Positions 21,622 through 60,521 of a stretch of DNA of 64,000 bases are shown here, piece after piece. The position numbers were made by a program, and so were the translations under genes. The notes beneath the pieces were generated by a model, which did no database searches, was not told where the DNA came from, and saw nothing but the letters and a program-made list of their open reading frames with translations. Each line of letters opens with the position of its first letter. Positions within the stretch are counted from its first letter, which is position 1. Source of the stretch: an uncultured Elusimicrobia bacterium (GTDB lineage Bacteria > Elusimicrobiota > Elusimicrobia > UBA1565 > UBA9628); the NCBI GenBank assembly GCA_964358485.1, contig CAYHPY010000001.1, positions 17,382-81,381 of the forward strand. Reading direction: 5' to 3'.

Positions 21622-21698
21622 CCCGGCCCGGCGGGCCTCTTCCGCGAACAGCAGGGGGAAGGAGCCCGAGCCGGCGATGAGCCCGACGATTTTTCGGT

Positions 21699-22502: not shown

Positions 22503-22545
22503 AAAAAATCCTCGAAAGAAATTAACGGGAACGAAACGAGAGAGT

Positions 22546-22572
22546 CCAGGCTGCCGTTACGCGGCAGCCTGG
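22546..22572 (-). other. Perfect 11-bp stem / 5-nt loop hairpin spanning the fabZ stop codon, lying between fabZ and lpxA.
   Basis: CCAGGCTGCCG-TTACG-CGGCAGCCTGG. On the mRNA the loop contains the fabZ UAA stop. No U-run follows the hairpin. Confidence 0.6.
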
Positions 22573-23060: not shown

Positions 23061-23079
23061 GTGTTCCTCCGTGGGTCGG

Positions 23080-23955: not shown

Positions 23956-23959
23956 GGAG

Positions 23960-25950: not shown

Positions 25951-25977
25951 CCGTTGTCGAACTTTTTGTTCAGCTGT

Positions 25978-30084: not shown

Positions 30085-30088
30085 CCTC

Positions 30089-35824: not shown

Positions 35825-35901
35825 GGTCGGGGGCAATCGCTGATTTTACCAATCCTGGCGCCGACCGTCCAGTCGCTGTTTGGACGGGAATTTGTCTGGG
35901 C

Positions 35902-35930
35902 CTTGACAAACCGGCCAGGACCTGTTATTA
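35902..35930 (+). promoter_or_regulatory. Near-consensus sigma70 promoter upstream of pilM.
   Basis: TTGACA, a 17-nt spacer, then TATTAA. It lies about 110 bp upstream of the pilM ATG, in the divergent region shared with the inositol operon. Confidence 0.55.
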
Positions 35931-36039
35931 ATAGAGGAAATAAGGCACAACCGGGCGCGAGCCCGGGTTCGTGGTGCCGACGCGCCGAGTCGATCCGTCC
36001 CTGATTGGGCGGGTCTCGGCGCTTTTTTTGTGAGATAAA

Positions 36040-37200
36040 ATGCCAGGGAAACTGGACGCGATAAAGGCAAAGCTGGGCTCGGTGCCCGGCATGGATAAAT
36101 TGGGGGCCCTCTTCTGGGGGCCGACCGATGTTCTTGCCATCGATGTGGGAAGCTACTCCGTGAAGGCCGCTTTGATCGTCACCGAGGCCGGCAAACCCAA
36201 GCTCAAGGCCTGGGGTTACCTTCCCTTGGATCTGAAAGCCGACGCGACCCCCGAGGAGCGCAAGACCAAAACCGTCAACGCGCTTCGGGCGTTTATGATC
36301 CAGAAAAACGTCACCGTCAAGGACGTCTCGACGGCGCTGTCCGGAAACTCGGTCATCGTGCGCTACGTCAAATTCCCCAGGCTGACCCGCGGAGAGCTCG
36401 CGGCGACCATCGCCACCGAGGCGGAGCCTTTCATCCCATTCGACATCAACGACGTCCAGCTGGGCTTTCACATCCTCAACGACACCTTGGTCGAGGAAGG
36501 CCAGAAAAAGATGGAGACGGTCCTGGTCGCGGCGAAAAAAGACCTGGTCAGCCAGCGGATCGAGGTGCTTCAGGCCGCGGGCCTCAACCCCGCGGTCATC
36601 GACGTGGACTCCTTCGCCCTGGAGAACGTCTACGAGAAGGTCCGCGATCCCAAGGGAGAGACCGGCTCGACCCTCTACTTGAACATCGGCCACATGGTCA
36701 CCAATCTTTCCATCATCGAGGCGGGCGTGACCCGCGTGGTGCGCGACATTTTCATCTCGGGAAACACCCTGACCAAGGCGATCATGAAGGCTCTTCAGGT
36801 CGACGCGGCCAAGGCCGAGGAGCTCAAGAAAGCCAACGGGATCATCGTCGACCCCGCCGAGAAGGAGAAGGCCTTGGCCGCCAACCAGCGGGAGGCGCTC
36901 GGGGTGTCTCAAGCCGTGGCGACCGTGGCCAAGGATCTGGTCGGCGAGGTGACCCGCTCGGTGGACTTCTATCTTTCCCAGGGGGCGGAGCGCTCCATCG
37001 GCCGGATCGTCCTGGCCGGCGGCAGCGCCCGGCTCAAGAATCTGACCAAACATCTGTCCGGCGAGCTCAAGGTCCCCGTGACGGTGCTCGATCCCTTCGC
37101 GTTTTTTTCCGAGCAGCCGGTCGGCTTGCCGGAAGAGCAGAAGTCCTCGTTCGGCGTGGCGATCGGCTTGGCCCTGCGGCGCAACAAGGATTGGCTCTAA
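36040..37200 (+). CDS. pilM: Type IV pilus assembly protein PilM (actin-like ATPase).
   Basis: VLAIDVGSYSVKAALI…TVLDPFAFF and the overall PilM/FtsA-like fold. First gene of pilMNOPQ. Confidence 0.85.
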   Translation: MPGKLDAIKAKLGSVPGMDKLGALFWGPTDVLAIDVGSYSVKAALIVTEAGKPKLKAWGYLPLDLKADATPEERKTKTVNALRAFMIQKNVTVKDVSTALSGNSVIVRYVKFPRLTRGELAATIATEAEPFIPFDINDVQLGFHILNDTLVEEGQKKMETVLVAAKKDLVSQRIEVLQAAGLNPAVIDVDSFALENVYEKVRDPKGETGSTLYLNIGHMVTNLSIIEAGVTRVVRDIFISGNTLTKAIMKALQVDAAKAEELKKANGIIVDPAEKEKALAANQREALGVSQAVATVAKDLVGEVTRSVDFYLSQGAERSIGRIVLAGGSARLKNLTKHLSGELKVPVTVLDPFAFFSEQPVGLPEEQKSSFGVAIGLALRRNKDWL

Positions 37201-37201
37201 A

Positions 37202-37762
37202 ATGTCGATAAAAATAAACCTTGTTCCCACGGAACTGCTGGCCAAGGCGGCCCAGCGCCAGCAGGTCATCCAATTCGGCATGGTTTCGGTCGTGGTCGTC
37301 ATGCTGATCGCCGGCGTCTCCTTTATGCATTTTATGAAGGCCAAAAAGCTGGAGGGCGAGTTGGCCGTGCAGGAGGCCGAGCTCAAGCGGCTGGCGGCCA
37401 TCGTCGCGAAGGTGGAGGAGTTGGAAAAGGCCGTGGCGGAGGTCCGAGCCAAGCTCGGGGTGGTGACCGATCTCCTCAAGACCCGGCCGTTGTATCCATT
37501 TTTCATGTCCGATTTCGCGAAATCGGTTCCCGCGAGCGTGACGGTCAAGAGCCTCGACACGGTCGGGCAAGCCAACAGCGTCCTGAAGCTCAGCATCATC
37601 GCCGAATCCCGGACTTCCGAGGACATCGCCGGCTGGATCCGGGCGATGGAAGAGTCGGGGCGGTTCAGCGAAGTTCAGCTGACCGGCTCCGTCAACGTGA
37701 CCGAGGTCGATGGGAGGATTTACGCTTTCACCATGACGAGCATGTACTCTCCCAAACTCTGA
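37202..37762 (+). CDS. pilN: Type IV pilus assembly protein PilN.
   Basis: INLVPTELL N-terminus, a single TM helix, then a coiled coil. Position in the operon. Confidence 0.8.
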   Translation: MSIKINLVPTELLAKAAQRQQVIQFGMVSVVVVMLIAGVSFMHFMKAKKLEGELAVQEAELKRLAAIVAKVEELEKAVAEVRAKLGVVTDLLKTRPLYPFFMSDFAKSVPASVTVKSLDTVGQANSVLKLSIIAESRTSEDIAGWIRAMEESGRFSEVQLTGSVNVTEVDGRIYAFTMTSMYSPKL

Positions 37763-38307
37763 TGGCGATAAAACTGACCAATAAACAAAAGCAGTACCTG
37801 GTGGCCGGGGTCATCATGACCGGGGCCTTCGGCTTCGTCTATTTTAAATTCTTCTGGCTTCCGATCTCCCAGAAGATCAAGGAGACCCAGGACAAGATCG
37901 AGGCCACGACGGCTAAAATCCAAAAGGCCCACGCCAAAGCCGCTCAGCTTTCTCGGGTGGAAGCCGATTTGGCCATGCTCAATGAGCAGGCCGCCGAGGC
38001 GGAACGGCGCCTTCCCAAGACCCGGTCGGTGCCGGAGATCCTGGTGACGGCGACGGCTCTGGCCCAAAAGCACAACGTGGCCATCAATATTTTCACGTTG
38101 GGCGGCCAGGCGGGAAAAACTTATTTTTACGAGCTCTTCTATCCGTTGAGTTTGCGCGGCTCCTTCCACAACATCGGGCGTTTCCTGGCCGCGATCTCCT
38201 TGGAGCAGCGGATCTTCAACGTCACCAACGTGCGTTACGGCACCCCGAACGAAAAGGGCGAATTGCAGGTGACCCTGACCTTGGTTTCCTACCAATATAA
38301 AGGATGA
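37762..38307 (+). CDS. pilO: Type IV pilus assembly protein PilO.
   Basis: N-terminal TM helix followed by a coiled coil. Synteny between pilN and pilP. Confidence 0.75.
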   Translation: MAIKLTNKQKQYLVAGVIMTGAFGFVYFKFFWLPISQKIKETQDKIEATTAKIQKAHAKAAQLSRVEADLAMLNEQAAEAERRLPKTRSVPEILVTATALAQKHNVAINIFTLGGQAGKTYFYELFYPLSLRGSFHNIGRFLAAISLEQRIFNVTNVRYGTPNEKGELQVTLTLVSYQYKG

Positions 38308-38894
38308 TCATCCTCGGCGTTGGGACTTGGCGGCTTTCCGGCGGCTTGGCCGCGGGGTTGGTCTTTGCCGCCTCCTCATCCTTCGCAAGCCCGGCCGCGA
38401 CTCCCGCGACGGCGGTCGCGGCCTCCACCACGACCGCCCAATCGGTTTCTTCGATCTATACCGCCGATCATTCCCGGGACCCCTTCATCCGGCCGGTCGC
38501 GGTGAGCCAGTCCGGCTCGGCGGCGGCCGCCGCGGCGGCGGCGGGAGGGGAACCTCCGGAAGCTCCGGAGTTCAGCATCCACGCCTTGAATCTGCGCGCC
38601 ATCATGAAGGATTCCTCCGCGGAATTCGCCTTGTTCTCGGATCCAAATTCCGGCGGGACTTTCATTTTTCGCAAAGGCCGGCTTTACGATCCCAAGAACA
38701 AGCCGGTCGACGGCGTCAAGGGAAGTATTAAAATCAAGCAGAAAACCGTGACGCTCCAGACGGAAGACGAAGACGTTCAGGTCTTCCGCCTGGGAGAAGA
38801 CAAGGATGAGCCGGGGGGCAAGCCCGCGGACAAGCCGGCGGCCGCCGCCGCTCCCGCTCCTCCGACAAGCGCCGCTTCCGGTGGACGGGAATAA
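38304..38894 (+). CDS. pilP: Type IV pilus assembly protein PilP-like.
   Basis: Signal/lipoprotein-like N-terminus, an RDPF motif, and a beta-domain. Synteny before pilQ. Confidence 0.65.
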   Translation: MIILGVGTWRLSGGLAAGLVFAASSSFASPAATPATAVAASTTTAQSVSSIYTADHSRDPFIRPVAVSQSGSAAAAAAAAGGEPPEAPEFSIHALNLRAIMKDSSAEFALFSDPNSGGTFIFRKGRLYDPKNKPVDGVKGSIKIKQKTVTLQTEDEDVQVFRLGEDKDEPGGKPADKPAAAAAPAPPTSAASGGRE

Positions 38895-38933
38895 GCGCGA
38901 TGCTAAATATATTGCCCGAGAGGGGATGAAGCC

Positions 38934-41147
38934 ATGATTCGAGAGCTCCTCAGACGATCGCTCGCCGCGCTGCTCGCCGCCCTGCTTTGCGTGCCCCATG
39001 GGCTTGTCGGATCCGCCCTCGCGGCGGAGACGGCCGGAAAAACCGAAAAGGCCGCCGCGGTTCCCGCTCTCACGCCCGCCGTGGCCTCTTCGACGGCGAC
39101 CGCCGCCGCGCCTGCTTCGGCCCCGACTCCGGTGGCCAAGGCCAAGCCCAAACCGAAACCCGCGCCCAAGCCCGCTCCGGCGGCGGCTTCGGTCCTCCAG
39201 GGCGTCGAACTGGGGGAGGACACGGTCCGCCTAAAGCTTTCCTCCCCGGCACGGTATCGGAGCTCGATTTCGTCCAATCCCCCGCGCCTGGTTCTGGATT
39301 TGATCGACACGGATCACCGCCTCGGAGTCCCGTCTGTCGCGGGGCGGGGAAAAGTCCTGCTGCGCCTACGGTCCTCCCAATTGTCCCCCGGGCCCAAGGC
39401 GGTCACGCGGGTCGCCCTGGATTTGAACGGGCAGGCCAACTACAAGGTTTCCGCCGATGGAAACGATTTGGTCGTCGCCCTGATCGGGGCCGAGGCTCCC
39501 GTCGCGGCGGCGCCCGTTCCCGCGGCGGAGCCCGCTCCCGTGACGGCGGCGCCCGCTCCCGTGGCGGCGGCGGCGCCGGTCATTGCGGCCGTCCCGGTCG
39601 TGACGGAGAAAACCGTTCCCGCTCCCCGTCCCAAAGTGAAAGTTCCCCCGGCGGCCCCCGCTCCGGTGGCGGCGGCCGTTCCCGAAATGGAGCCCGGTTC
39701 CATGGGCGTCGAAATTTCCGCTGAGCTCGGGGCCATGGCGGCCAAGGGTGAAGCCGTCGCCTCCTCCTCCGCGGAGCCCGGCCCGATGCTGACTTCCAGC
39801 GGGGGGGAACTTCCTCCGGGACTTCAAAGCGCCCGCCGGGTCGTTCGCGGGGATATGATCAGCCGCCTTCCCCGCGACCGGGTGGATTTGGAGTTCGACA
39901 ACACCGACGTCAAGGACATCATTAAACTGCTCTCGGCCAAGGCCAAGATCAACATGATCCACGGCCCCGACGTGACGGGAACCTTGACCCTCCACCTTCA
40001 GGACGTTCCGTTCCACGAGGCTTTCCGGACGATCCTCTCCATGATGGGCCTGACCACGACCCAGGTGGGGGACAATATCCTTCGGATCCTCACCCCATCG
40101 TCGTTGGACAAGATTCAGTCCGCGTCGGGGGGCGGGGCCAGCAAGGTGGTCCTTCTCCACTACGGCAAGGCCTCCGACATCGCCGAGGCGTTGCAGGCCG
40201 CCAAGACGGCCGAGGGACGCAAGTCCGGCATGGTCAAGCCCAATGAACTTCTCAACGCCCTGATTCTGACCGACACTCCCGAGGGAATGGCGGCCACGGA
40301 ACGCCTGATCGCCGAGCTCGACGTCAAACCCCAGCAGATCCTCATCGAGACCAAGCTCGTCGAGATCACCCTGGGCCGGGACATCCACTACGGCATCCAG
40401 TGGGATTATTTCGAGGTCGATCCGGGCCGGGCCTTGGGAAAAAACGGGCTCACGACCTTCGGTTCGGACGTGGGCGCCGCCTCGCCCGCCCTGCCGTTTA
40501 ATGAGGGCACGAGTTTGGCCCAGCAGAAGCCTCCCACGGCCGGCCAGGGAAGCCGTGGGACGGGGGTTAATCTCCCCGCCAACTCGGTCCTGGGCGCCTT
40601 CACTTTGGGGCGCGTGACCAATAACTTCTACGTCAACGCGGCGATCACGGCGGCGGCCAGCCAGGGCAAGGCCAAGGTCCTCTCCGATCCGAAAATCGCC
40701 ACCCTCAACAACAAGAAGGCGGAGTTCAACATCATCACTTCCTTCCCCTACAACGAGGCCACGGTGGCTTCGGGCGGCGGCGTCAACAACAACACGAAAT
40801 TCCTGGAGGTCGGCATCAAGCTGAGGGTGACTCCCACTCTCAACGCCGACGGGCGCGTGACCCTGGACATCGAACCCGAGGTTTCCAAGCCCGCGTCGGG
40901 CGCCGTGGCCGCCGGAGCCGCTCCCCCGGTGGACAAGCGCTACGCCAAGACCTGGGTGATCGTCAAGGACGGGGAAACCATCGTTCTGGGCGGCCTGATC
41001 AGCGACAACGTGGTCAACACCGTGGCCAAGATTCCGTTGTTCGGGGACCTGCCGTTGATCGGTTGGCTCTTCAAGAAGAAGTCGGTGACCCGCTCCCGCG
41101 GAGAACTGCTGATCTTCGTCACCCCCAAACTGCTCAACGACGCGTAA
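38934..41147 (+). CDS. pilQ: Type IV pilus secretin PilQ with an AMIN domain and a Pro/Ala-rich repeat linker.
   Basis: C-terminal secretin signature GGLISDNVVNTVAKIPLFGDLPLIGWLFKKKSVTRSRGELLIFVTPKLL. N-terminal AMIN-like region. Intragenic tandem APAPV(T/A)AA repeats at about 39480-39610. Confidence 0.9.
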   Translation: MIRELLRRSLAALLAALLCVPHGLVGSALAAETAGKTEKAAAVPALTPAVASSTATAAAPASAPTPVAKAKPKPKPAPKPAPAAASVLQGVELGEDTVRLKLSSPARYRSSISSNPPRLVLDLIDTDHRLGVPSVAGRGKVLLRLRSSQLSPGPKAVTRVALDLNGQANYKVSADGNDLVVALIGAEAPVAAAPVPAAEPAPVTAAPAPVAAAAPVIAAVPVVTEKTVPAPRPKVKVPPAAPAPVAAAVPEMEPGSMGVEISAELGAMAAKGEAVASSSAEPGPMLTSSGGELPPGLQSARRVVRGDMISRLPRDRVDLEFDNTDVKDIIKLLSAKAKINMIHGPDVTGTLTLHLQDVPFHEAFRTILSMMGLTTTQVGDNILRILTPSSLDKIQSASGGGASKVVLLHYGKASDIAEALQAAKTAEGRKSGMVKPNELLNALILTDTPEGMAATERLIAELDVKPQQILIETKLVEITLGRDIHYGIQWDYFEVDPGRALGKNGLTTFGSDVGAASPALPFNEGTSLAQQKPPTAGQGSRGTGVNLPANSVLGAFTLGRVTNNFYVNAAITAAASQGKAKVLSDPKIATLNNKKAEFNIITSFPYNEATVASGGGVNNNTKFLEVGIKLRVTPTLNADGRVTLDIEPEVSKPASGAVAAGAAPPVDKRYAKTWVIVKDGETIVLGGLISDNVVNTVAKIPLFGDLPLIGWLFKKKSVTRSRGELLIFVTPKLLNDA

Positions 41148-41156
41148 GAGCGGGGG

Positions 41157-42506
41157 ATGCTGCCGCTGCTGGTCTGTCTGCTGGTGGCGGCCGGGCCCGC
41201 GTTGTCGGCCGCTTTTCCGGAGCGCGCGCCGGTCCTTCTGCTGCAGGCCGGGGCCGGGGGATTGTTTCTGTGGATGACCGGCCGCGTCGGGGCCGGCTAT
41301 GTTCCCCTGCCCTCCGGGCGCGTCCTGGCTTGGTCGGCGGCCCTGCTCCTGCTAGGCACCCTTTCCGCGCGGCTGAGCCCGCTCTGGTCCCAAACCGCCG
41401 TTTTCTGGCGCCCGATGACGGCCGGCATCCTGATCGTGCTGGCCATGGCCGGCGTCTCCAAGGGCCAACGCGGCTGGATCGACGAATTTTTGAGGGCCTC
41501 GGGCTGGGTCCTGATGGCGGTGGTCTTTTATCAAAGGTTTTCGGAGGGCACGGTCCGGCCGATGGGGCTATTCCTTTCGACGCAAGCCCTCGCGGCGTCG
41601 ATCCTGCTCCTTCTTCCCCTGGCGGTTCAACGGGAGGATTGGATTCTGACCGGGGGCTTATCGCTCGCCCTGTGCTGGAGCGGCGGGCCCGGCGCGTGGC
41701 TCGGCCTGGCCGCGGCCTTGGCCGTCGTTCGGGCCTGCGGGGTGGCGGGGTACTGGAGCGGCCTTGGGATCGGCTTGGTCGGACTGGTCGTCATTTACGG
41801 AAAATTCCAATCTCCGGAGGTGGTCGATCGCTGGCACTGGTGGGTCGCGGCCTGGAAGCTGGCCTGGGCCAAGCCGTGGCTCGGCTGGGGTCCCGGCGGC
41901 TTCGGGTCGGCCTCGGTGGTATTCCTTCATGATGGCTCGCCGGTCTCGGCCGACCCCTGGAACCTTCCATTGAGGCTGGCGGCGGAATACGGCTGGCCCT
42001 TCGCGCTCCTTTGGGGAGCGGGCATCCTTCATTGCCTTCGAATCGGCGGCCCGCATAAGAGCTTCGGCGCGATCGCCGTGCTGGTGCAGTCCTTGTGGGA
42101 GCCGGGGCTGGCGGCTCCGGCAAACTGGTGGCTTTTTTCCTATTTCGCCGGCTCCGCCCTTTCGGAAAGCGCTTACGGCTGGAACGTGGCGGCTCGCTAC
42201 AAGCTGCCCGGTTGCGTTTTCGCCGCGGGTCTGGGTTGGGCGCTGGTTCATGAATTAGGGAGGCCTCCTGCCCTTTCCGCCCCCGAATCCAGACGCGCCG
42301 CCGCGGAACTCGCCGGGGGTTCGGGCGCCGCCGTCCCGAGAGAACGAATCCTGGAGGCCGTCGCCTTCCTCGAGGAGTCCGCCGAGCGGGACCCGTTCGA
42401 CTCCGCGACCCGGGCGCAGCTGCAGCGCCTTTACGGGCGTTTGGGCTTGGAGGATCTCGCCCGGGCCCAGGCCGCCGAGGCCGCGGCGCTTCGGAGGCGC
42501 CCGTGA
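41157..42506 (+). CDS. O-antigen ligase / O-oligosaccharyltransferase (Wzy_C, PglL-like) family membrane protein with a C-terminal TPR-like tail.
   Basis: Polytopic membrane protein. A periplasmic loop region (…ILTGGLSLALCWSGGPGAWLG…) resembles that of Wzy_C/WaaL-family proteins. Starts 10 bp after pilQ. Confidence 0.5.
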   Translation: MLPLLVCLLVAAGPALSAAFPERAPVLLLQAGAGGLFLWMTGRVGAGYVPLPSGRVLAWSAALLLLGTLSARLSPLWSQTAVFWRPMTAGILIVLAMAGVSKGQRGWIDEFLRASGWVLMAVVFYQRFSEGTVRPMGLFLSTQALAASILLLLPLAVQREDWILTGGLSLALCWSGGPGAWLGLAAALAVVRACGVAGYWSGLGIGLVGLVVIYGKFQSPEVVDRWHWWVAAWKLAWAKPWLGWGPGGFGSASVVFLHDGSPVSADPWNLPLRLAAEYGWPFALLWGAGILHCLRIGGPHKSFGAIAVLVQSLWEPGLAAPANWWLFSYFAGSALSESAYGWNVAARYKLPGCVFAAGLGWALVHELGRPPALSAPESRRAAAELAGGSGAAVPRERILEAVAFLEESAERDPFDSATRAQLQRLYGRLGLEDLARAQAAEAAALRRRP

Positions 42507-43771
42507 TCGCCCAATCCACGCGGGCTTGGGGTCTGTTGTCCTTGGCCGGTTGGGCGGCCGCCGTTTCGGCGGCCGGGTTCTCCTCCGGCTGGACGGCCGC
42601 CGGCTTGATCCTGTGGCTTTGGGTCGCGTTGTATCCCTCGGACCTCATCCGGCCCCGAGGCCTGGGGGCGTGGACGCTCTGGGTGTCGTGGGGCGCGTTT
42701 TCGGCCGTTATCGGCCCCGAGCCGCTGCTCGGGGCCGCCCCTGTCTGGGGAAAGGCGACCGGAGTCCTGATTTTTTCGCTGGCCTATTCCTGGTGGGGCC
42801 GTCCCCACCGGCGGGTCTGGCTGTTCGGGGTGTGGGCCGCCGCCGCCGTTTTCGGGACCCGGGGCCTGGTGTTGGGCGCGTGGAACGAGGGGGCCGTGGG
42901 GTTTTTGGCCGCGGCCGCCGGAAGCCTCCTTTTCGTCCGCGCCTCCTCGATTCTGGAGGGGGGCTGGCGGGCCGCGGTTTGGATCCTGCGGATCCTTTTC
43001 GTGCTGACGGTCGCAGCGGGACTGCGCGGTTCTCCCCGCTCCTCGGTGATCGAGGCGTCCGGCCCGGGTTGGAGCGCCGCGCCCTTGGCGTTGGAGCGCC
43101 CGGCCTCCGGCTTCGGTCCGGGCCGGATCGAGGCTGCCCTGAGAAGCGCGGGTTGGGAGGGGTCGGGCCCTTCCCTCTCCGAGTGGGTTTTTTCGTCGGT
43201 CGAGACGGGGCTTCCAGGAGGCCTGCTCCTGCTGATCGCGACGCTTTATGTTCTTCTTCCCCCGGCTTACGGGGACCGTCCGCGGGAATGGGAGCGGCAG
43301 GCTTGCGCCGGCGCGGTGGGCGGATTGGCCGCGGCCTCCCTCTTCCAGGGTCTCTTCGGCCGTCCGGAGTCGGTCCTTCTGTGGTTCACGGCGCTGGCAT
43401 GCGGAGCCCCCGGCGCGGAGGAAGAGGAAACCCGCCCTTTCCGGATTTCCCCGGCCGCGGCTTGGGCGGCGGTGGCGGCCTGCCTGGCGGCGCCCATCCC
43501 CCGCTTGGCCTTGAGCGCGGGCCTGCGTGCCGGAGCCTCGGACTTCGGGCTGGCCGCCGCGGCCTTGGTGTCTCCGTTGGGCCCTGAGGTGCTGGCCCGA
43601 CGCGCCGAGGCGGACTTGTCGTTGCGGCCCCCTCAGGTGGGCCGGGCCTTGGCCCGGTACCGCCGGGCCGCGCGCATTAATCCGGGAGCCGTCGAATTTG
43701 AAAGGCGCGCCGCTGAGATTTCCCGGGTCGTCTCGGAATTGGGCCCCCCCGTTCCCCGGGGGCGGCCGTGA
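42503..43771 (+). CDS. Second O-antigen-ligase-like polytopic membrane protein, paralog of the preceding gene.
   Basis: Similar topology and a similar TPR-like C-terminus. 4-bp overlap with the preceding gene. Confidence 0.4.
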   Translation: MIAQSTRAWGLLSLAGWAAAVSAAGFSSGWTAAGLILWLWVALYPSDLIRPRGLGAWTLWVSWGAFSAVIGPEPLLGAAPVWGKATGVLIFSLAYSWWGRPHRRVWLFGVWAAAAVFGTRGLVLGAWNEGAVGFLAAAAGSLLFVRASSILEGGWRAAVWILRILFVLTVAAGLRGSPRSSVIEASGPGWSAAPLALERPASGFGPGRIEAALRSAGWEGSGPSLSEWVFSSVETGLPGGLLLLIATLYVLLPPAYGDRPREWERQACAGAVGGLAAASLFQGLFGRPESVLLWFTALACGAPGAEEEETRPFRISPAAAWAAVAACLAAPIPRLALSAGLRAGASDFGLAAAALVSPLGPEVLARRAEADLSLRPPQVGRALARYRRAARINPGAVEFERRAAEISRVVSELGPPVPRGRP

Positions 43772-50710: not shown

Positions 50711-51791
50711 GGTGCCCGGCCCCAACCTCCTGGTCGTGATGGGCACCCGCCCCGAGGTCATCAAGCTCTTTCCGGTGATCCGGGCTTTGCGCCGGAGAGG
50801 CGCGCGCGCGAGGCTCTGCGTCACCGCCCAGCATCGGGGGCTATTGGACGGGATGCTCCGGGAGTTCGGCCTGAAGGCCGATTTCGACCTTGATTTGATG
50901 CGTTCCGGACAGCGTCCGTCGGAACTATTGCCCAAGGTGATCGCGGGGGTCGATAAAGTCCTGGCGTCGGGGCGCCCCGACCTGGTCCTGGTGCAGGGCG
51001 ACACCACCTCGGCCTTCGGGGCGTGCCTGGCGGCGTTTTACCGGGGGATCTCCGTCGGGCACGTGGAGGCGGGCCTGCGGACCCATGACTTCTCCGATCC
51101 TTTTCCCGAGGAAGCCAACCGGGTTTTCGTGGACCGGCTCTCGACTTTGTTGTTCGCGCCGACGGCCCTGGCCCGCGCCAATCTTCTGAGGGAAGGAATT
51201 CCGGCTCGGAAAATCCTGGTGACGGGAAATACCGGCGTGGACGCCTTGGAGTGGGCATTGGAGCGCGCGCCGAAAATCCCGACTCCGGGCTTCGGGGCCG
51301 GTCCGCTGGCGGTCATGACCCTGCACCGGCAGGAAAATTTCGGGGCGCCTTTGGAGCGGATTTTCGCAGGGGTTCGGCGGGCGGCGGAGCTATGCCCGGA
51401 GTTGACCTGGGTGTTCCCGGTCCATCCCAATCCCCGCGTGCGCGCCGCCGCGCGCAGGCTCCGCCATCCCCGGGTGCGGCTGACGGCGCCGCTGGGGCAT
51501 TCGCAATTTGGCGCCCTCTTGAAGCGCGCGGCCTTCATCCTGACCGATTCGGGGGGGATTCAGGAGGAGGCCCCGACCTTGGGCAAGCCGGTCCTGGTGG
51601 CCCGTGAAAAGACGGAGCGGCCGGAATTGCTCAAGGGCTGGGGGGTGCTGGTGGGCTCCTCCACGGAAAAAATCGCCCGGGAGGCGGTGCGCCTGGTCCG
51701 CCGCCCCCCGAAACCGCCCCGAGGTCCCAATCCTTTCGGGGATGGGCGCGCCGGCGAGCGGATCGCCGCGGCCGTCCTCGAGCGCTTTTGA
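50688..51791 (+). CDS. wecB: UDP-N-acetylglucosamine 2-epimerase (non-hydrolysing). The start is uncertain.
   Basis: GTRPEVIKLFPV…HVEAGLRT…DRLSTLLFAPT…TGNTGVDAL motifs. An alternative start lies at 50739. Confidence 0.85.
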   Translation: MPEFTAAKVPGPNLLVVMGTRPEVIKLFPVIRALRRRGARARLCVTAQHRGLLDGMLREFGLKADFDLDLMRSGQRPSELLPKVIAGVDKVLASGRPDLVLVQGDTTSAFGACLAAFYRGISVGHVEAGLRTHDFSDPFPEEANRVFVDRLSTLLFAPTALARANLLREGIPARKILVTGNTGVDALEWALERAPKIPTPGFGAGPLAVMTLHRQENFGAPLERIFAGVRRAAELCPELTWVFPVHPNPRVRAAARRLRHPRVRLTAPLGHSQFGALLKRAAFILTDSGGIQEEAPTLGKPVLVAREKTERPELLKGWGVLVGSSTEKIAREAVRLVRRPPKPPRGPNPFGDGRAGERIAAAVLERF

Positions 51792-51837
51792 GGTCCGCGG
51801 TCAGGGCTCCGCGGTCATTGTTGTATAATTCTGCCGC

Positions 51838-52731
51838 GTGAAAACGGTCTCCGTGCCTTGCCTTTGCGGGTCCCAGGAAAATTCCGTGGTTTACGATCGT
51901 CCTTACGACGACCGGTCCGCGGGGGATTTCCTGGCGACGACCGACCGCTTCGACAATTACGGACGGGTGGTCCGCTGCTCCTCCTGCGGCTTGGTCTTCT
52001 CCAATCCGCGTCCCCATTCCTCCGAGATCGCCAAGGGCTACGCCGAGAGCGAGGACCAGGAGTACCTGCAGGAATCCTCCAATCGTTCGATCAACGCGCA
52101 CATCAGCCTGGCCACCATCCGGCGCTTCAAGCCCGCGGGCAAGCTCCTGGAAATCGGTTCCGCCGCGGGTTACTTCCTCAACGCGGCCCGCACCGATTTC
52201 GAGGTGACCGGGGTGGAGCCCAGCCGCTGGGCCGCGGCCGAGGCCAAGCGGCGCTTCGGGGTGGAGGTCAAGGTGGGGGGGTTTCTCGAGGCGGCCCTTC
52301 CCGACGCCTCCTTCGACGTGGTGGCGGCGGTGGACGTCATTGAGCACCTGGAGGATCCCGTGGCGTTCATCCGGGAATGCCGGCGGGTCCTGAAGCCGGG
52401 GGGCGTGCTTTATTTGATGACTCCCGACATCGAGAGTCTCTCGGCGCGCCTGCTGGGCGGCTCCTGGTGGGGCCTGCGGCCGGTCCATATTTACTACTTT
52501 AGCCGCCGGACCTTGGGCGACCTTCTTAAACGGGAAGGCCTGGAGGTGGAGTTGGTCCGTTCCTTCGGGAGGATTTTCTCCCTGGGCTATTGGGCCAGCC
52601 GCCTCAAGAACTATCCATCTTATTTGACCCGTCCGATTTTGGCGGTGATATCCGCGCTCGGCCTGGAGGACAAGATTTTCTACCTCAACACCCGGGATTC
52701 CCTCGAACTGATCGCGCGCCGGCCGTCATGA
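51838..52731 (+). CDS. Class I SAM-dependent methyltransferase with N-terminal Cys pairs.
   Basis: CLCG…CSSCG zinc-ribbon-like N-terminus. SAM-binding LLEIGSAAGYF. Acidic motif VDVIEHLEDP. Confidence 0.7.
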   Translation: MKTVSVPCLCGSQENSVVYDRPYDDRSAGDFLATTDRFDNYGRVVRCSSCGLVFSNPRPHSSEIAKGYAESEDQEYLQESSNRSINAHISLATIRRFKPAGKLLEIGSAAGYFLNAARTDFEVTGVEPSRWAAAEAKRRFGVEVKVGGFLEAALPDASFDVVAAVDVIEHLEDPVAFIRECRRVLKPGGVLYLMTPDIESLSARLLGGSWWGLRPVHIYYFSRRTLGDLLKREGLEVELVRSFGRIFSLGYWASRLKNYPSYLTRPILAVISALGLEDKIFYLNTRDSLELIARRPS

Positions 52732-53969
52732 ATTTCCGCGCCCGCTTGGCCGCGGTCGCGCTCCTGGCGTTGGCGGTTCGGGGCGCGTACATCCTCTCCC
52801 ATTCCCGCGGCGAGGGGGAACTGGTCGGCGACGCCCACCAATACCACCATTTCGCGGTCAATTTGGTCGAGAAAAGCTCCTACGAGGACGCTTTCGGCGA
52901 CCGGCTGTTCCGGATTCCAGGCTATCCCGTTTTTTTGGCCGGGATTTACGCCGTCGGGGGCCCGCGGGTGGCGGCGGTTCAGTTGGTCCAGGCCGTTTTG
53001 GGGGCCTTGGCCTGTCTCTGCCTTTTTTTGACCGCCCGCAAGCTTTGGGGGGAGCCCTGGGATCTCTTGTGCGGAGGCGGCGCCGCCTTTTATCTGGGGT
53101 TGATTGAACCCTGCGCCCGGGTCCTGAGTGAATCCCTGGGCTCGTCCCTGGCCGCCTATTTTCTCTGGGCCTGGTTTTGCCTGGAGGGGGGGGCCGCCGT
53201 GCGCGCGGGGGTTTCGGCCTTGCTCCTGGCGGCCTTGAGCCTGGTCCGTCCGGACTTCGGCCCGTCGGCGGCGGCTTTGGCCCTGGCGTCGCCCCGGCTG
53301 GATCCGCAAATGCGCGGGCGCCATGTCCTCATTTGGGTCGCCGCGGCCTTCCTGGTCTTCTCTCCATGGATCATCCGCAATCAGCGGGTCTTCGGGCGCT
53401 TCATACCGGGCTCGACCCAGGGCGAGGCCGGGATCTACTACGGGTTGGCTTTCCCGCTTGCGGCCCTGGGGGATTTGGGCAAGGTCGAGTATTTGCCGAC
53501 GGGCGTGCCGGAGTTGGAACAGCGCCAATATTATCTCAAGGAATTTCGCGCGCTTTGGGCGGCGACGCCCGCGCTGAAAATCGCTCGGGCGTACGCGTTC
53601 AATATCGCCTCGGTTTTTTACCCGTTTCTGCCCGCTTACGATTGGACCTACGCCTTTTGGGTTCCGTTTTGGCTTTGGGCCTGCTGGCGGCTCAGGGGCC
53701 GGCCCGTCACGAAGGCGGCCTTGTGCCTCATTCTTCCGTACCTGGCCGTGCATTTGGTCACCGGCGGGCCGGTTTCGCGCTACCGGGAGCCCATCGCGGG
53801 GGCCTTGCTCCTGCTGGGGGTTTCGGGGCTGAGGGATTTAGCCCAACGCTGGGAAGGCGGATTTCAAAAACGGGTGAATCTTTGGCTGGGCTTCAACTTC
53901 CTGGCCTATCTTTTTTCGCCGACCTTCCGGAGCGCGGCGTTGACCCTTAAGCGGATCGTCCTCGGCTGA
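52728..53969 (+). CDS. GT39/GT83-like (ArnT/PMT-type) GT-C membrane glycosyltransferase.
   Basis: HSRGEGELVGDAHQYHHFAVNL N-terminal loop and YPVFLAG, typical of dolichyl-phosphate-mannose-protein mannosyltransferase / ArnT-like enzymes. Confidence 0.55.
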   Translation: MNFRARLAAVALLALAVRGAYILSHSRGEGELVGDAHQYHHFAVNLVEKSSYEDAFGDRLFRIPGYPVFLAGIYAVGGPRVAAVQLVQAVLGALACLCLFLTARKLWGEPWDLLCGGGAAFYLGLIEPCARVLSESLGSSLAAYFLWAWFCLEGGAAVRAGVSALLLAALSLVRPDFGPSAAALALASPRLDPQMRGRHVLIWVAAAFLVFSPWIIRNQRVFGRFIPGSTQGEAGIYYGLAFPLAALGDLGKVEYLPTGVPELEQRQYYLKEFRALWAATPALKIARAYAFNIASVFYPFLPAYDWTYAFWVPFWLWACWRLRGRPVTKAALCLILPYLAVHLVTGGPVSRYREPIAGALLLLGVSGLRDLAQRWEGGFQKRVNLWLGFNFLAYLFSPTFRSAALTLKRIVLG

Positions 53970-55473
53970 GCTTGGCTCTGGACCAATCCCGCAGAATCCG
54001 GCGGTCGTTTTCTTCCATAACCGCGTAGCCCGCGCCCCAATAAAGCGCCAGCCCGGCGCCGCCGAAGCAGAGCAGGCCGGCCCAGCCCTGGACTTGGCCG
54101 TGGAACGCCAAAGAAACCGCCGCCAGGACCAAGGCGGAGAGAAACGGCCTGCGGCAGCCCTGATCGAGGAACTCGGCCCAGGTGAGTCCGAGGTGGCGGC
54201 GATGGACGAAAGTCAGGAAAACCGGCACCACCAGCCATTCGGCGGCCAAGAGGCCCGCCGCGGCTCCCAGAATCCCCCACCGGGGGATGACCAGGGGCCA
54301 GAGGAGGAGCACGACCAGGGCCTTGGCGCCCATCAGATAGGCCGAAAGCTCGGGAAAGCCCCGGCCGATGGCCGCGCTGTTGGGGAGATAGGTGGCCAGG
54401 TAGGCCAGGTTGGCCAGGACCAGGAGGCGGAAGGGCCAGGTGCTGGCGGCGCTGAAGTCCGCGCCGAGCCACAGGGTCATGAACTGCGGGGCCAGCGCGA
54501 AGGACAGCACCGAAATGGGGAGGATCAGGAAAAGGGAGAGCTCCGTGCCCTTGAGATACAGGCGGCGCAGGCGCTCCTCCTCCCCGCGGCCGTGGAGTTC
54601 GGTCAAGAGGGGGAAGGCCGCCGCGGTAACGGCCCCGCAGAGCATGTTGAATTTCTGGGCCAAGGTGGAGGAGACCGCGTAGAAACCGATTTGGGAGAGC
54701 GGCAAGAGCGAGCCGATGAAGACGCGGTCGCCTTGGAAGGTGACGATCCACATGAGATAGGAGGCCAGGCTTTTCCCGGAAAAGCGGATGAACTCGCGGT
54801 TTTCCCGGGGGTCGGGCCGGGACTTTTGGAGGAGGGTGTCGCGGACCAGCCAAAGCCCCGCGGCGGCCAGGGCGGCGTGGGAAAAAAGGAAGGAGGCGGC
54901 CACCGCGCGGATGCCGTGTCCCAGGGATAACAGCGCCAGCGCGCAGAGGGAGACCGCCAGGGATTGCAAAGTGGTCAGCAGGTTCCAGGCCTTGAAGCGC
55001 TGGGTTCCGTAAAGCACGTTGAGGGCGAATTGGAGGGCGAAATACGGGGCGGCCGAGGCGGCCACGAAGGCGAAAACGGAGGACGCCTTGGGGGCCAGCT
55101 CCGGGGAAATTTTCAGGAAACTGCCGGAGATCCACGCCCGCGCGCTCCAGAGGAGGGCGCCGCCGATGAGGGCCATCGCCAGCTCGAAGGCCAAAGTCCG
55201 GCGCAGGAGGCCGCCCAGGGGGCCCCCGGGGCCGCAGCCCAGGTGCTGGGCGCAGAATTTCTGGACGGCCACCACGGTTCCGAAATTAAGGACCATCAGA
55301 TAGCCGGCCAAGGTCCACATCAAAGTATAGAGGCCGTAGCCGTCGGAGCCCAGGCGGGCGACCAAATACGGGGTGATGAGCAGGTTGGCGGCCAGGACCG
55401 CGCCTTGCCCCAGCAGGTTCCATTGAACCCCTTCCAGCACGCGGGGGCCGACGGGGGGAGCCTTGGAGGTCAT
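53947..55473 (-). CDS. Wzx-like polysaccharide flippase (MOP/PST family).
   Basis: About 12-14 TM helices. WNLLGQGAVLAANLLITPYLVARLGSDGYGLYTLMWTLAGYLMVLNFG is typical of PST-family flippases. Confidence 0.7.
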   Translation of the reverse strand: MTSKAPPVGPRVLEGVQWNLLGQGAVLAANLLITPYLVARLGSDGYGLYTLMWTLAGYLMVLNFGTVVAVQKFCAQHLGCGPGGPLGGLLRRTLAFELAMALIGGALLWSARAWISGSFLKISPELAPKASSVFAFVAASAAPYFALQFALNVLYGTQRFKAWNLLTTLQSLAVSLCALALLSLGHGIRAVAASFLFSHAALAAAGLWLVRDTLLQKSRPDPRENREFIRFSGKSLASYLMWIVTFQGDRVFIGSLLPLSQIGFYAVSSTLAQKFNMLCGAVTAAAFPLLTELHGRGEEERLRRLYLKGTELSLFLILPISVLSFALAPQFMTLWLGADFSAASTWPFRLLVLANLAYLATYLPNSAAIGRGFPELSAYLMGAKALVVLLLWPLVIPRWGILGAAAGLLAAEWLVVPVFLTFVHRRHLGLTWAEFLDQGCRRPFLSALVLAAVSLAFHGQVQGWAGLLCFGGAGLALYWGAGYAVMEENDRRILRDWSRAKLSRGRSA

Positions 55474-55544
55474 CTCCCGACAATATCCCAAGTTGCCCCC
55501 CCGGCCGTCAACCGTGCTTTTGCTATCATGTCGTCGAGGACCTC

Positions 55545-56687
55545 ATGAGGATCGCCATCGAGATGGCCCTGACCGCGGGCGGCAAGCGCGGCGGAGACGT
55601 GTACGCGGACAATCTGGTCCGCGGCCTGGCCTCCGTGGACCCACTCAACGAGTATTTCCTCTTCGGCTACGCTTTTAAGGACCATGCCCGCAGGGAGAGC
55701 TCCATCCCCTGCCCCGATCGTCCCAATATCCGCCGGCTGATCAAGCGCTGGCCCCAGGGCCTGGTGGACCGGTTGGAGTGGGGGATGGAGCTTCCGGTCA
55801 TCGAGATGTACATGCGCCGGGAGGGCATGGACCTCTATCATTGCGCCGGACCGCGCCTGCCGCACCTCTCGCGGGTGCGGTCGGTGGCCACCTTTCACGA
55901 CCTCATCCCCTTCGCCCATCCGGAGTTCATGCCCGCCGCGGCCGTCGCCCATTGGCAGGCCTGCGAGCGCCACGCCGCCGCGACCGCCACCCGGCTCATC
56001 GCCTCCTCCACGGCGACCAAGCGGGATTTGATGGAGCACCTGGGGGTTCCGGAGTCCAAGATCAGCATGATCCTTTTGGGAGTGGACCGGGAGATCTTTC
56101 ATGGGATTCTGGACATGGAGGCCCTGGCGGGCGCCCGGAGGCGCTACGCGGTCCCGGACCATTTTTTGATTTCGGCGGGGCCCTTCGAGCCGCGGCGCAA
56201 TTGGGAGGCGATCCTGAGAGCGGCGTCCATCCTCCGGTCGCGCGGGCGGGATTTGGGCGTGGTCCTGACGGGGGGCGTCGTCGAGACGGCGGCGGGCAAG
56301 CTCAAAAGCCTGGCCGCCGAGCTGAAGGTTCCCCTGGTTCTGACCGGCTATGTTCCGATCAAGGATTTGGCCCTCCTTTATAACCTGGCCGAGGCCTTCG
56401 TCTATCCCTCTTTTTACGATGGGTTCAACCTCCCTTTGATCGAGGCCATGGCTTGCGGCTTGCCGGCCGTGGTGACGGCGGTCGGCGCTCTGCCCGAGAT
56501 CGCGGGGGGCGCCGCGAGCTTGGCGGCTTCCCCGGAGGCCGAGTCCGTGGCCGAGGCGCTTGCCCCGGTTTTGACCCCGGAGGAGCGGGACTCGTTCCGC
56601 GCGCGGGGCCTGGCCCGGGCCGCGGAATTGACCTGGGAGAAAACCGCGGCTGCCACCGTGAAAGTCTACGAAGAGGCGTGCCGATGA
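55545..56687 (+). CDS. GT4-family glycosyltransferase.
   Basis: C-terminal FVYPSFYDGFNLPLIEAMACGLPAVVT (E-x7-E motif region). Confidence 0.8.
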   Translation: MRIAIEMALTAGGKRGGDVYADNLVRGLASVDPLNEYFLFGYAFKDHARRESSIPCPDRPNIRRLIKRWPQGLVDRLEWGMELPVIEMYMRREGMDLYHCAGPRLPHLSRVRSVATFHDLIPFAHPEFMPAAAVAHWQACERHAAATATRLIASSTATKRDLMEHLGVPESKISMILLGVDREIFHGILDMEALAGARRRYAVPDHFLISAGPFEPRRNWEAILRAASILRSRGRDLGVVLTGGVVETAAGKLKSLAAELKVPLVLTGYVPIKDLALLYNLAEAFVYPSFYDGFNLPLIEAMACGLPAVVTAVGALPEIAGGAASLAASPEAESVAEALAPVLTPEERDSFRARGLARAAELTWEKTAAATVKVYEEACR

Positions 56688-57934
56688 GCGCCGCCCCCGC
56701 CGCGCCTTCCTTGGCCGCGCCCGAATCCATCGCCATCGGTTCTCCGTTAAAACGGGCGTTCTACGCCCTGGAAGCGATTCTCTTGAGGTTGGCCGGCCCC
56801 GCGGCGGAGGATGGGCGGCCGCCGACGCGTTGGGTCGTCTTTGGGCACGCCGCCGTGGGAGACACCTTGTTCCTCCTGCCCGCCTGGACGCGCTTGCGCC
56901 GGGCCTATCCCAAGGCGCACATCGCCTATGTTTCCAACCCCAGCCCGATCTCCCGGGAGCTCATCCCCGCGACGGGGCTCTTCGACGAGATCCTGGAGAT
57001 CGAATTGCGCGACGATTGGTCCTGGCGCCGCTCGGCCAACGAGCGGATTCAAAAAGGCCGCTACGACGCCGCGCTCTTCAGCCTATCGGCGGTCGTCCCC
57101 TATTTCCAGCCGGCCTTGGCGGGCATCCCCCTGCGGGCCGGGTTTCACATGGACGCGGTGCCGCCTGGGGCCGGATTTTTTTGGCGCATGAAAAGAGCCC
57201 TGGTGACCGGGGAGCTTTCGCGGCGGCTTTTGTTCAACCGGGCGGCCGTGGTGGGGGGAGAAGCCGAGAACGCCGTGGCCCGCAATCTTCGCCTGATGGG
57301 GGCGCTGGGCCTGCCCCAATCCTCCCCGGAGTCCGTTCCTTTTCCGGTCACAGACGCGGCCAAGCGCTACGCCTTCCAAGCCTTGGAGCCCCTGCGGACG
57401 GGCAAGCTGGTCGCCATCCATCCGGGCTCGGCCTCCAATCCCTACTTCAAGATCTGGCCTCCCGAGAAGCTTGGCCGGCTCTGCCGGCGCCTCATCGAGG
57501 AAGCCAAGGTCTCCTGCGTCCTGGTCGGCGGCGCCGAGGACATGCCCAACGCCGCCGCCGTCTGCGCCGCCGCGGGCCGCGAAATCCCCTCCTTCGTGGG
57601 GCGCTGCGGCCTGCTGGAGACTTTCGCCCTGATCTCGGAGTGCGACCTCTTCATCGGCTCCGACACCGGCCTGGCCAAGGCCGCCATCGCCCAGGGCGTG
57701 CCCAGCGCCACCCTCTGGGGCCCCACCGATCCGGTGGAGCTCGGCGCCTGGAAAAACCCCCACCGCCACCTGGATCTTCGCTCCGGCATCAGTTGCAGCC
57801 CCTGCGTCCGCCTGGGCATGCCCTACCCCAAAACCCCCGGCGGCCTCGACTACCGCACCTGCTCCCACCACGACTGCCTCAACAAGCTTCCCGAACCCGA
57901 CCTCTGGTGCCAGGTATCCACTTTCTTAACTTAG
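56684..57934 (+). CDS. GT9-family glycosyltransferase (heptosyltransferase-like). Its last 9 codons are encoded by a duplicated terminal repeat of the adjacent mobile element.
   Basis: Typical GT9 sequence: VAIHPGSASNPYFKIWPPEKLGRLCRRL…CVLVGGAEDMP…DLFIGSDTGLAKAAIAQGVPSATLWGPT. Confidence 0.75.
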   Translation: MSAAPAAPSLAAPESIAIGSPLKRAFYALEAILLRLAGPAAEDGRPPTRWVVFGHAAVGDTLFLLPAWTRLRRAYPKAHIAYVSNPSPISRELIPATGLFDEILEIELRDDWSWRRSANERIQKGRYDAALFSLSAVVPYFQPALAGIPLRAGFHMDAVPPGAGFFWRMKRALVTGELSRRLLFNRAAVVGGEAENAVARNLRLMGALGLPQSSPESVPFPVTDAAKRYAFQALEPLRTGKLVAIHPGSASNPYFKIWPPEKLGRLCRRLIEEAKVSCVLVGGAEDMPNAAAVCAAAGREIPSFVGRCGLLETFALISECDLFIGSDTGLAKAAIAQGVPSATLWGPTDPVELGAWKNPHRHLDLRSGISCSPCVRLGMPYPKTPGGLDYRTCSHHDCLNKLPEPDLWCQVSTFLT

Positions 57935-60520: not shown

Positions 60521-60521
60521 C

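Follow-up and report, generated by a model that had tools for sequence, protein, structure and literature searches.

Type IV pilus genes pilMNOPQ fused to a conserved glycan gene block in Elusimicrobia: a tentative link to a lipid-anchored envelope glycan

In an uncultured Elusimicrobia bacterium, the type IV pilus genes pilMNOPQ run directly into a set of glycan genes, and this pilMNOPQ-glycan fusion is a real, conserved super-operon of Elusimicrobia. The stretch of DNA on which this account is based, called the window when its whole length is meant, is 64 kb long with ~65% G+C. The 11-13-gene block joins pilus alignment and secretin genes to a membrane protein with the fold of WaaL and to two glycosyltransferases (GT) of the GT-C type that resemble YfhO; its components belong to known kinds, and the combined architecture is apparently undescribed in the searched literature. 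What would such a module make? The answer that we tentatively prefer is that it acts on the periplasmic face, depends on lipid carriers, builds and decorates a lipid-anchored envelope glycan (the core or O-chain of lipopolysaccharide (LPS) or a related outer-membrane glycolipid), and is co-transcribed with pilMNOPQ. We place a lipid-anchored product of the LPS type first, though tentatively, protein glycosylation second, as a rather unlikely candidate, and an inositol-lipid variant third, as an improbable one.

The pilMNOPQ operon and its junction with the glycan genes

A sequence-only reading had located pilMNOPQ at 36040-41147, and the protein families bear this out: pilM (36040-37200, +; PilM_2, E 2.7e-50), pilN (37202-37762, +; PilN, E 9.7e-9), pilO (37762-38307, +; PilO, E 1e-19), a pilP-like gene (38304-38894, +; PilP at a sub-cut-off E of 0.005, GspC_delta at E 2.7e-5) and pilQ (38934-41147, +; Secretin, E 2.7e-47, plus Secretin_N and AMIN), whose secretin product has Ala/Pro-rich linkers. 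PilM, N, O, P and an AMIN-secretin in this order are what characterises the type IVa PilMNOPQ subcomplex, PilP being its weakest match, and the position of the pilP-like gene is kept across related loci (tblastn). A promoter-like site lies upstream of pilM (TTGACA, 17 nt, TATTAA; 35903-35931, +), as a consensus match only, and since an Rfam scan of 35-59 kb returned no RNA family, no riboswitch is placed ahead of pilM.

The stop codon of pilQ ends at 41147 and the next gene, encoding the Wzy_C protein WzyC1, starts at 41157, the 9-nt spacer between TAA and ATG reading GAGCGGGGG; a sequence scan of this junction showed no terminator-like or promoter-like site. Ten tightly spaced plus-strand genes follow pilQ, as had been reported, overlapping by 4-23 nt, with a sole gap of 46 nt between the stop of the WecB gene (51791) and the start of a second methyltransferase gene (51838). 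Pfam likewise confirms the families proposed for Wzy_C (41157), UPF0104, the Trm112-methyltransferase, GT4, WecB, the second methyltransferase, Wzx, a further GT4 and GT9. The run had been described as followed by Wzx, GT4 and GT9, which is right as to the families; however, it ends at 53969, because the Wzx gene is on the minus strand and convergent, and the last two, GT4b and GT9 (55545-57934), form a separate plus-strand pair.

Conservation of the block in Elusimicrobia

Related loci were collected by a scan with the family of GTC1, the first of the two GT-C enzymes, taking one genome per species, which resulted in 78 loci (71 titled Elusimicrobia/Elusimicrobiota and seven "bacterium"), and their gene order was mapped by tblastn with the window proteins. 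Word-indexed searches for homologs of WzyC1 gave only 6, then 30 proteins, because its sequence is of low complexity. Several groundwater metagenome assemblies, including Hainich H52 records, hold proteins identical to those of the window, and the nearest named relatives of the window proteins are all Elusimicrobia metagenome-assembled genomes.

In practically every well-flanked locus the order is pilM-N-O-P-Q, Wzy_C, GTC1, GTC2, UPF0104, (Trm112-methyltransferase), GT4. Among the loci with at least 4.2 kb upstream (n=53), pilQ is followed by Wzy_C and GTC1 in 49, and in a fiftieth (L021) pilQ was recognised by tblastn; GTC2, UPF0104 and GT4 lie downstream in 45 of 48 loci, and the Trm112-methyltransferase gene is present in 38 of 48. 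The gap between pilQ and Wzy_C has a median of 7 nt and is at most 30 nt in 51 of 60 cases, as tight as the junctions within the pil operon, and the block proteins have meanwhile diverged to 26-49% (WzyC1) and 38-57% (GTC1) identity. The coupling of glycan and pilus genes that had been proposed is therefore supported and STRENGTHENED, being no quirk of one genome (49-50 of 53 species); the acceptor that had been deduced from it fares less well, as discussed below. Nor is the block merely carried by a wider synteny, because the HAD gene upstream of pilM, found in 40 of 50 loci, is replaced in the other 10, and because in a deep lineage (L084) both flanks differ and pilMNOPQ-Wzy_C-GTC1-GT9-GT2-GTC2-UPF0104-GT4 is intact, with 0 nt after pilQ. 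GT9 and GT2 likewise stand between the two GT-C genes in L049; in deep lineages, a GT9 adjoins the GT2 within the block. Conservation is highest for the sub-block UPF0104-(methyltransferase)-GT4, and the genes after this first GT4 (GT4a), namely WecB, the second methyltransferase, a PMT_2-like GT-C, Wzx, GT4b and GT9, are found only in some loci.

Does this linkage have a functional meaning? A harmless old operon fusion, which would concern the linkage only and is compatible with either of the lipid-target readings, is a real possibility, if somewhat short of an even chance. Many proteobacteria carry aroK-aroB after pilMNOPQ, which offers a parallel. A pilus function is not known for any component of the module, and the GT-C module lies apart from the pil genes in two loci (L045, L055). 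A similar set of Wzy_C, GT-C, Wzx, methyltransferase, GT4 and GT2 genes exists without pil genes in another genomic context, in L085. Against such a fusion speaks that the junction is kept as well as those within the pil operon, across proteins diverged to 26-57% identity, and that it outlasts the turnover of both flanks.

Some of the loci deserve a separate mention. In the region 1-17644 of L085, a 1.2-Mb contig of a JGI metagenome, a more distant Wzy_C gene stands beside that of a 1368-aa AftD-type GT-C with CBM_AftD, together with genes for a PMT_2 GT-C, Wzx, an acyltransferase_3, a methyltransferase, a GT2 and several GT4 enzymes, a comparable combination of Wzy_C and more than one GT-C. 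In one metagenome-assembled genome (DATLUA01), two contigs (L031 and L038) each carry the whole pilM-to-GT4 block, for which a duplication or mixed strains may account. Finally, an apparent 1067-aa Wzy_C-GT-C fusion in L047 was rejected as an artefact, a long open frame in GC-rich DNA in which the two matches lie in different frames.

The Wzy_C proteins

WzyC1 (41157-42506, +; 449 aa) is a membrane protein with a short TPR (tetratricopeptide repeat)-like tail. It matches Pfam Wzy_C (PF04932) with 33.0 bits against a cut-off of 31.7, and all 50 members of the family assembled from the related loci match the same model (best E 2.8e-14). In its AlphaFold model (pLDDT 86), WaaL (7tpg) is the sole match in the PDB at E <= 0.001 (E 1.1e-5, template modelling (TM) scores 0.50/0.54, 400 columns). 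Searches of PDB sequences with WzyC1 and GTC1 gave nothing useful, and a PDB profile search with the WzyC1 family matched only the TPR tail. The model has one helix more than the WaaL core, ahead of the tail, so the tail is probably periplasmic. The TPR tails that had been noted are a property of the family, whose profile ends in two TPR units and 12 of whose 50 members match TPR_19, and not of the window proteins as judged by Pfam, which detects no TPR in them. Among the best 25 of the 26 Pfam families matched by the 50 members PglL_A is absent, and Wzy_C_2 appears as one weak match (E 0.0076).

The family keeps an invariant Arg (Arg225), a GxGxG motif and the motif LYAHQxFLETAAE. Besides a conserved Arg in a periplasmic loop, the superfamily has a His on which the ligases and transferases studied to date depend, and the His that 47 of 50 relatives have at position 268 of WzyC1 we take to be this catalytic residue, by motif position only. 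The window protein has Trp268 instead, and a relative of 84% identity has Arg, while farther members of the same sub-lineage retain the His. An assembly error does not explain the change, because the identical Trp268-bearing protein is found on six contigs from several samples. As for the second of the two Wzy_C-like proteins that had been counted here, WzyC2 (42503-43771, +), it has no Pfam match and no BLAST similarity to WzyC1, and is only a remote, degenerate homolog, detected by hhalign against the WzyC1 family (91% probability, E 9e-7) and through its ortholog in L086, which matches Wzy_C (E 2.7e-4). WzyC2 lacks equivalents of Arg225 and the His and is restricted to the window (L001), L022 and L086, that is, to a sub-lineage which has this extra degenerate copy as a whole. 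Given the Trp in WzyC1 and the degeneration of WzyC2, a ligase-type activity may have been lost or altered in the window genome.

The GT-C enzymes and their possible partners

Two tandem YfhO-like GT-C paralogs had been proposed downstream of the Wzy_C genes, and their paralogy is confirmed. GTC1 (43768-45756, +), with a C-terminal beta-sandwich and a terminal transmembrane helix, and GTC2 (45746-47584, +) share 30% identity over 356 aa (BLASTP, E 2e-16), and neither has a significant Pfam match of its own. The AlphaFold model of GTC1 (pLDDT 84) shows a GT-C fold, with AftD as the nearest structure in Foldseek (E 2.5e-9), followed by ArnT, STT3 and Pmt1/2. A likeness to YfhO (PF09586) is seen in the family, 18 of 52 GTC1 orthologs matching it (best E 1.3e-11), with no rival GT-C family; the window copy itself reaches no more than 12.5 bits (E 0.047), below the cut-off of 28.5. 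Asp44 is invariant in the 52 sequences of the GTC1 family, and GTC2 has a matching "GDL" near its N-terminus, so that both proteins retain the Asp in the window genome. GTC1 thus shows both the GT-C fold and an acidic residue of the first extracytoplasmic loop, a part of the model that has low confidence. A third YfhO-like enzyme had been suspected at 10080-11717; this is ruled out, since the protein has no BLAST, Pfam or NCBIfam similarity and an hhalign probability of 0.3%. The gene there, for a predicted membrane protein of 545 aa, and recG (7714-10089, -) are divergently oriented.

In at least 12 related species, the deepest included, a GT2 gene (230 aa) lies between GTC1 and GTC2, its nearest relatives being dolichol-P-mannose synthase (DPMS; E 1e-19) and ArnC. 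On this distribution, the ancestral module was probably a full three-component set of GT2, candidate flippase and GT-C. No GT2 of this type was found in the window by tblastn, and the window lineage would therefore have lost or moved it. The flippase-like UPF0104 gene is present in the window block (47545-48582, +, with a likely ATG at 47578) and encodes a homolog of the MprF flippase domain (LPG_synthase_TM, E 8e-38; TIGR00374, E 3e-9). It is followed by a gene for a Trm112 zinc ribbon joined to a class I S-adenosylmethionine (SAM)-dependent methyltransferase (48579-49586, +; Trm112p, E 7e-9; Methyltransf_11, E 1e-20) and by GT4a (49583-50710, +; Glycos_transf_1, Glyco_transf_4), the last gene of the conserved block, whose nearest solved relatives are BshA, MshA, PimB and PimA (E 1e-19 to 1e-10), with WaaG only at 1e-6.

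A lipid-anchored envelope glycan as the tentative product

How could these components work together? In the sequence of steps that we propose, GT4 enzymes on the cytoplasmic face, with GT9 where present, would glycosylate a lipid acceptor, and the methyltransferase would modify a sugar. The DPMS/ArnC-like GT2, missing from the window, would load a monosaccharide onto polyprenyl phosphate, and the MprF-type UPF0104 protein would carry the lipid-linked sugar or a glycolipid across the inner membrane, where the two YfhO-like paralogs would hand that sugar to the acceptor in the periplasm. The WaaL-fold Wzy_C protein would then ligate an undecaprenyl-diphosphate-linked glycan onto the same acceptor, a glycan supplied by the variable downstream genes (WecB, the second methyltransferase, the PMT_2-like GT-C, Wzx, GT4b, GT9) or by genes elsewhere. 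In the window genome the ligase step may be impaired or changed, given the Trp of WzyC1 and the degenerate WzyC2. The link to the pilus would be one of co-expression, whether because two envelope functions were fused long ago or because the pilus or secretin depends on the surface glycan.

Several observations argue for a lipid-anchored target. WaaL is the only solved fold that matches WzyC1. Furthermore, GT9 genes are found inside the block of deep lineages and at the end of the window locus, where the gene for a heptosyltransferase-like protein (56684-57934, +; Glyco_transf_9, E 1.9e-21), with a likely ATG at 56684 overlapping the GT4b stop, scores 59 bits with the models of heptosyltransferases I and II, under their cut-offs; GT9 is mainly a family of LPS heptosyltransferases. 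Lipid A genes are encoded in the same window, ~15 kb upstream of the pil-glycan locus, in a cluster (16992-28512, -) of lpxB, a short-chain dehydrogenase/reductase gene, a GFO-type oxidoreductase gene, lpxI, lpxA, fabZ, lpxC, lpxD, skp (OmpH) and bamA. From these lpx, skp and bamA genes, the organism is a lipid A-producing diderm and so needs core transferases and a ligase. Besides, the region after GT4a varies as O-antigen-type loci do. Lipid A or core is modified in the same three-component way by ArnC/ArnT/ArnEF and by RgtA-E of Rhizobium. Known sets of GT2, flippase and YfhO GT-C decorate lipid-anchored polymers (PMC5836110, PMC8035078), and the pairing of GT4 and UPF0104 is known from glycolipid operons, where it makes, and probably flips, a glycolipid (PMC12713373). 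In the reading that we tentatively prefer, LPS is the most likely target, and an LPS or glycolipid target fits the GT9 genes, the WaaL fold and the nearby lpx cluster at least as well as the pilin target that had been advanced.

The likeness to waa core clusters and to WaaL (7TPG) comprises the Wzy_C domain with its only significant fold match (E 1e-5, TM ~0.5), the invariant loop Arg, GxGxG, the neighbouring genes of the GT9 and GT4 families and the presence of lipid A genes in the window. Unlike them, the family has an extra C-terminal helix and two TPR units, the window protein has Trp for His, no Kdo (3-deoxy-D-manno-oct-2-ulosonic acid) transferase or core kinase is seen, and the whole is fused to a pilus operon. 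With the three-component systems of teichoic acids (GT2 CsbB/GtrB, GtcA/GtrA and YfhO; PMC5836110, PMC8035078), the module shares the YfhO-like GT-C fold, the conserved Asp of the N-terminal region, the DPMS/ArnC-like GT2 inside the block of at least 12 related species and a candidate flippase gene adjoining. Here, in contrast, the host is an LPS-making diderm, the GT-C enzymes are two tandem paralogs, the window has no GT2, the candidate flippase is an MprF-type UPF0104 protein and not GtrA/GtcA, and the set is joined to a WaaL-fold protein and pilMNOPQ. YfhO-type three-component glycosylation has so far been characterised in Gram-positive bacteria and would hereby be extended to diderms.

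Nonetheless, a number of points weigh against this assignment. Sequence alone does not tell a protein from a lipid acceptor, YfhO-family enzymes also O-glycosylate proteins (PMC12041528), and WaaL and PglL are alike by fold, the search of the PDB having matched no PglL structure. GT4a has its nearer relatives in MshA, BshA and PimA/B, with WaaG, an enzyme of the LPS core, more distant, and no Kdo transferase is seen in the locus. A family scan of 36-58 kb found no initiating phosphoglycosyltransferase of the WecA/WbaP type and no Wzz; among the elements of a Wzx/Wzy-dependent O-antigen cluster (initiating phosphoglycosyltransferase, Wzx, Wzy and chain-length regulator), Wzx alone is encoded there, on the minus strand. 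Since WzyC1 lacks the His, the model may not hold for the window genome where the ligase is concerned. Furthermore, the C-terminal TPR units of the family suggest a protein partner, and a role in LPS does not explain a fusion to pilMNOPQ across so many species.

Protein glycosylation and inositol-lipid alternatives

These last two points lead to protein O-glycosylation tied to the pilus machine, an explanation that we consider rather unlikely. According to it, the YfhO-like GT-C enzymes, using polyprenyl-phosphate monosaccharides, and/or a PglL-like Wzy_C protein would act on proteins of the periplasm or the surface, among them pilins and pilin-like proteins, and the TPR tail of Wzy_C would tether the enzymes either to PilMNOPQ or to what they glycosylate. 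In its favour, the fusion is shared by 49-50 of 53 species, its gap has a median of 7 nt and it survives changes of the flanks; moreover, the two TPR units follow an extra helix beyond the WaaL-like core. Three Wzy_C proteins that are more distant (profile E 4.5e-6 to 4.9e-4) stand in other genomic contexts with no pil genes adjoining, which makes the linkage specific to the Elusimicrobia family in the cases examined. Documented protein and pilin glycosyltransferases exist among YfhO-family and other GT-C enzymes: PgfM1 and PgtC2, of the YfhO family, O-glycosylate Ser/Thr-rich protein regions (PMC12041528), and the GT-C enzyme TfpW glycosylates pilins (bioRxiv 10.1101/2020.04.19.049825). The streptococcal Pgf and GtrB/PgtC2 systems resemble the present one in having a YfhO-family GT-C as two paralogs (PgfM1 and PgfM2), a GT2 and an epimerase; their hosts are monoderm, however, their targets are Ser/Thr-rich and disordered, of which the adjacent PilQ offers none here, and the similarity to PgfM2 is negligible (E 0.16).

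Other evidence speaks against it. The sequence-only reading had held that the linkage matches the pattern of O-linked pilin glycosylation, and it does not. TfpO (PilO) and the pilin arabinosyltransferase TfpW are encoded beside the pilin gene, not beside pilQ, and the general PglL enzymes are unlinked. With PglL and TfpO the module shares the Wzy_C superfamily, with TfpW the GT-C fold, and with the group an association with type IV pilus genes; it differs in that its neighbour is pilQ, that no pilin gene is near and that PglL_A is not among the best 25 of the 26 families matched by the 50 Wzy_C members. The search for a pilin gene was negative: the prepilin motif G[FMYILVW][ST][LMI][IVLPT]E has no match in the 64-kb window, and among ~80 related loci only one (L027) has a prepilin gene nearby. 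PilQ as a conserved Ser/Thr-rich target was ruled out as well, since its linkers are Ala/Pro-rich and Ser/Thr-poor (median ~10% Ser/Thr) and many species have none, so that the secretin is not an obvious conserved target of glycosylation. To this are added the GT9 genes within and beside the block, the location of the GT-C module apart from the pil genes in two loci and the lack of the His in the Wzy_C copies of the window; together with the missing PglL_A and with WaaL as the only solved fold match, they weaken the pilin/PglL proposal.

In a stronger version, the Wzy_C-TPR protein and its two YfhO-like GT-C partners would belong to the pilus machine as an integral accessory; docked through the TPR tail to PilP or PilQ, they would glycosylate pilins or another machine part on its way through the periplasm. 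In a second variant, the block and the inositol cluster described next would make a lipoglycan like phosphatidylinositol mannosides (PIM) that the pilus needs. We give this pair of proposals about one chance in four, and the first, if true, would be a phylum-wide, machine-coupled pilus glycosylation using YfhO-type enzymes in a diderm.

In the third reading, the product is a lipoglycan anchored to a phospholipid, possibly an inositol lipid, like mycobacterial PIM and lipomannan (LM) or glycosylated lipoteichoic acid. Directly upstream of pilM and divergent from it, a cluster (28651-35836, -) encodes myo-inositol-1-phosphate synthase, a CDP-alcohol phosphotransferase (486 aa, nearest to AF2299/IPCT-DIPPS), a GFO/IDH/MocA oxidoreductase, a class-III aminotransferase, a 412-aa unknown protein and a HAD phosphatase, a content that suggests an inositol or amino-inositol phosphate compound or lipid. 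The cluster is syntenic in two related loci (L002 and L004), where a separate nucleotidyltransferase (NTP-transferase) gene is added, and its HAD gene is found in 40 of 50 loci. In this scheme, GT4a would attach a sugar to a phospholipid or to an inositol head group, and the product, once flipped by UPF0104, would be lengthened by the GT-C enzymes on the periplasmic side. The similarity of GT4a to MshA, BshA, PimB and PimA is consistent with this, as are the GT4 and UPF0104 pair of P. aeruginosa, which makes a glycosyl-phospholipid (PMC12713373), and the best-known YfhO substrate, a glycolipid-anchored polymer (PMC5836110). Like gpgSDF/hexSDF (PMC12713373) and the actinobacterial PIM/LM systems, the locus has a UPF0104-(methyltransferase)-GT4 sub-block, a GT4a nearest to the MshA/BshA/PimA/B clade and an inositol-phosphate cluster next door; unlike them, it has no deacetylase and adds GT-C and Wzy_C partners. 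Nevertheless, this reading is improbable, since GT4 similarities at such a level are generic, the inositol cluster does not adjoin in 10 of 50 loci, nor in L084, and GT9 and the WaaL fold favour lipid A-core instead.

Whichever the acceptor, the block connects pilus biogenesis with envelope glycosylation in a concrete way that can be tested, and does so in a diderm phylum that has been little studied. Most of the lineage is uncultivated, which makes direct tests difficult. Were the target a protein, a new route to pilus glycosylation would be at hand. Were it a lipid, as we tentatively prefer, the block would locate genes that probably take part in the assembly of LPS or lipoglycan in Elusimicrobia, and would be a caution against assigning a pilus function from synteny alone.

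The variable downstream region and neighbouring genes

The variable part of the locus starts with the gene of a WecB-type UDP-GlcNAc 2-epimerase (50688-51791, +; Epimerase_2, E 1.7e-96). The 46-nt gap behind it, the only real intergenic gap of the run, holds a hairpin followed by a TATAAT hexamer (51795-51829, +; consensus matches only). Most matches of the terminator scan are T-rich membrane-protein codons within genes, and the 51795 hairpin is the sole intergenic one. In 51795-51837 the hairpin is GC-rich and the perfect TATAAT lies 8 nt ahead of the GTG start of the second methyltransferase gene; the two elements may mark the boundary of a transcription unit and may represent a terminator and a promoter for a leaderless or near-leaderless transcript. 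The second SAM methyltransferase (51838-52731, +; Methyltransf_23, E 2.8e-26) is followed by the last plus-strand gene of the run (TMx; 52728-53969, +), whose product had been called GT39/ArnT-like and is here a probable PMT_2/ArnT-like GT-C, on matches to PMT_2 that are all sub-threshold and span the full profile: 12.1 bits in the window (E 0.23; cut-off 26.1) and 19.2 and 18.6 bits in orthologs (E 0.0015 and 0.0023). The Wzx-type flippase gene (53947-55491, -; Polysacc_synt_3, E 2.9e-17; Polysacc_synt, E 2e-14) is convergent with the operon, and GT4b (55545-56687, +; Glycos_transf_1, E 9e-22) precedes the GT9 gene.

Directly after GT9, at the end of the glycan locus, an IS200-like Y1 transposase is encoded (57956-58780, -), within a low-GC patch at 58-60 kb (G+C of 57%, vs ~65% elsewhere). 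An acyltransferase gene (18054-18986, +) is located in the lipid A region. Beyond the transposase, two HEAT-repeat proteins and then ExbB/TolQ, ExbD/TolR and a TonB_C protein are encoded at 58869-62312 (+).

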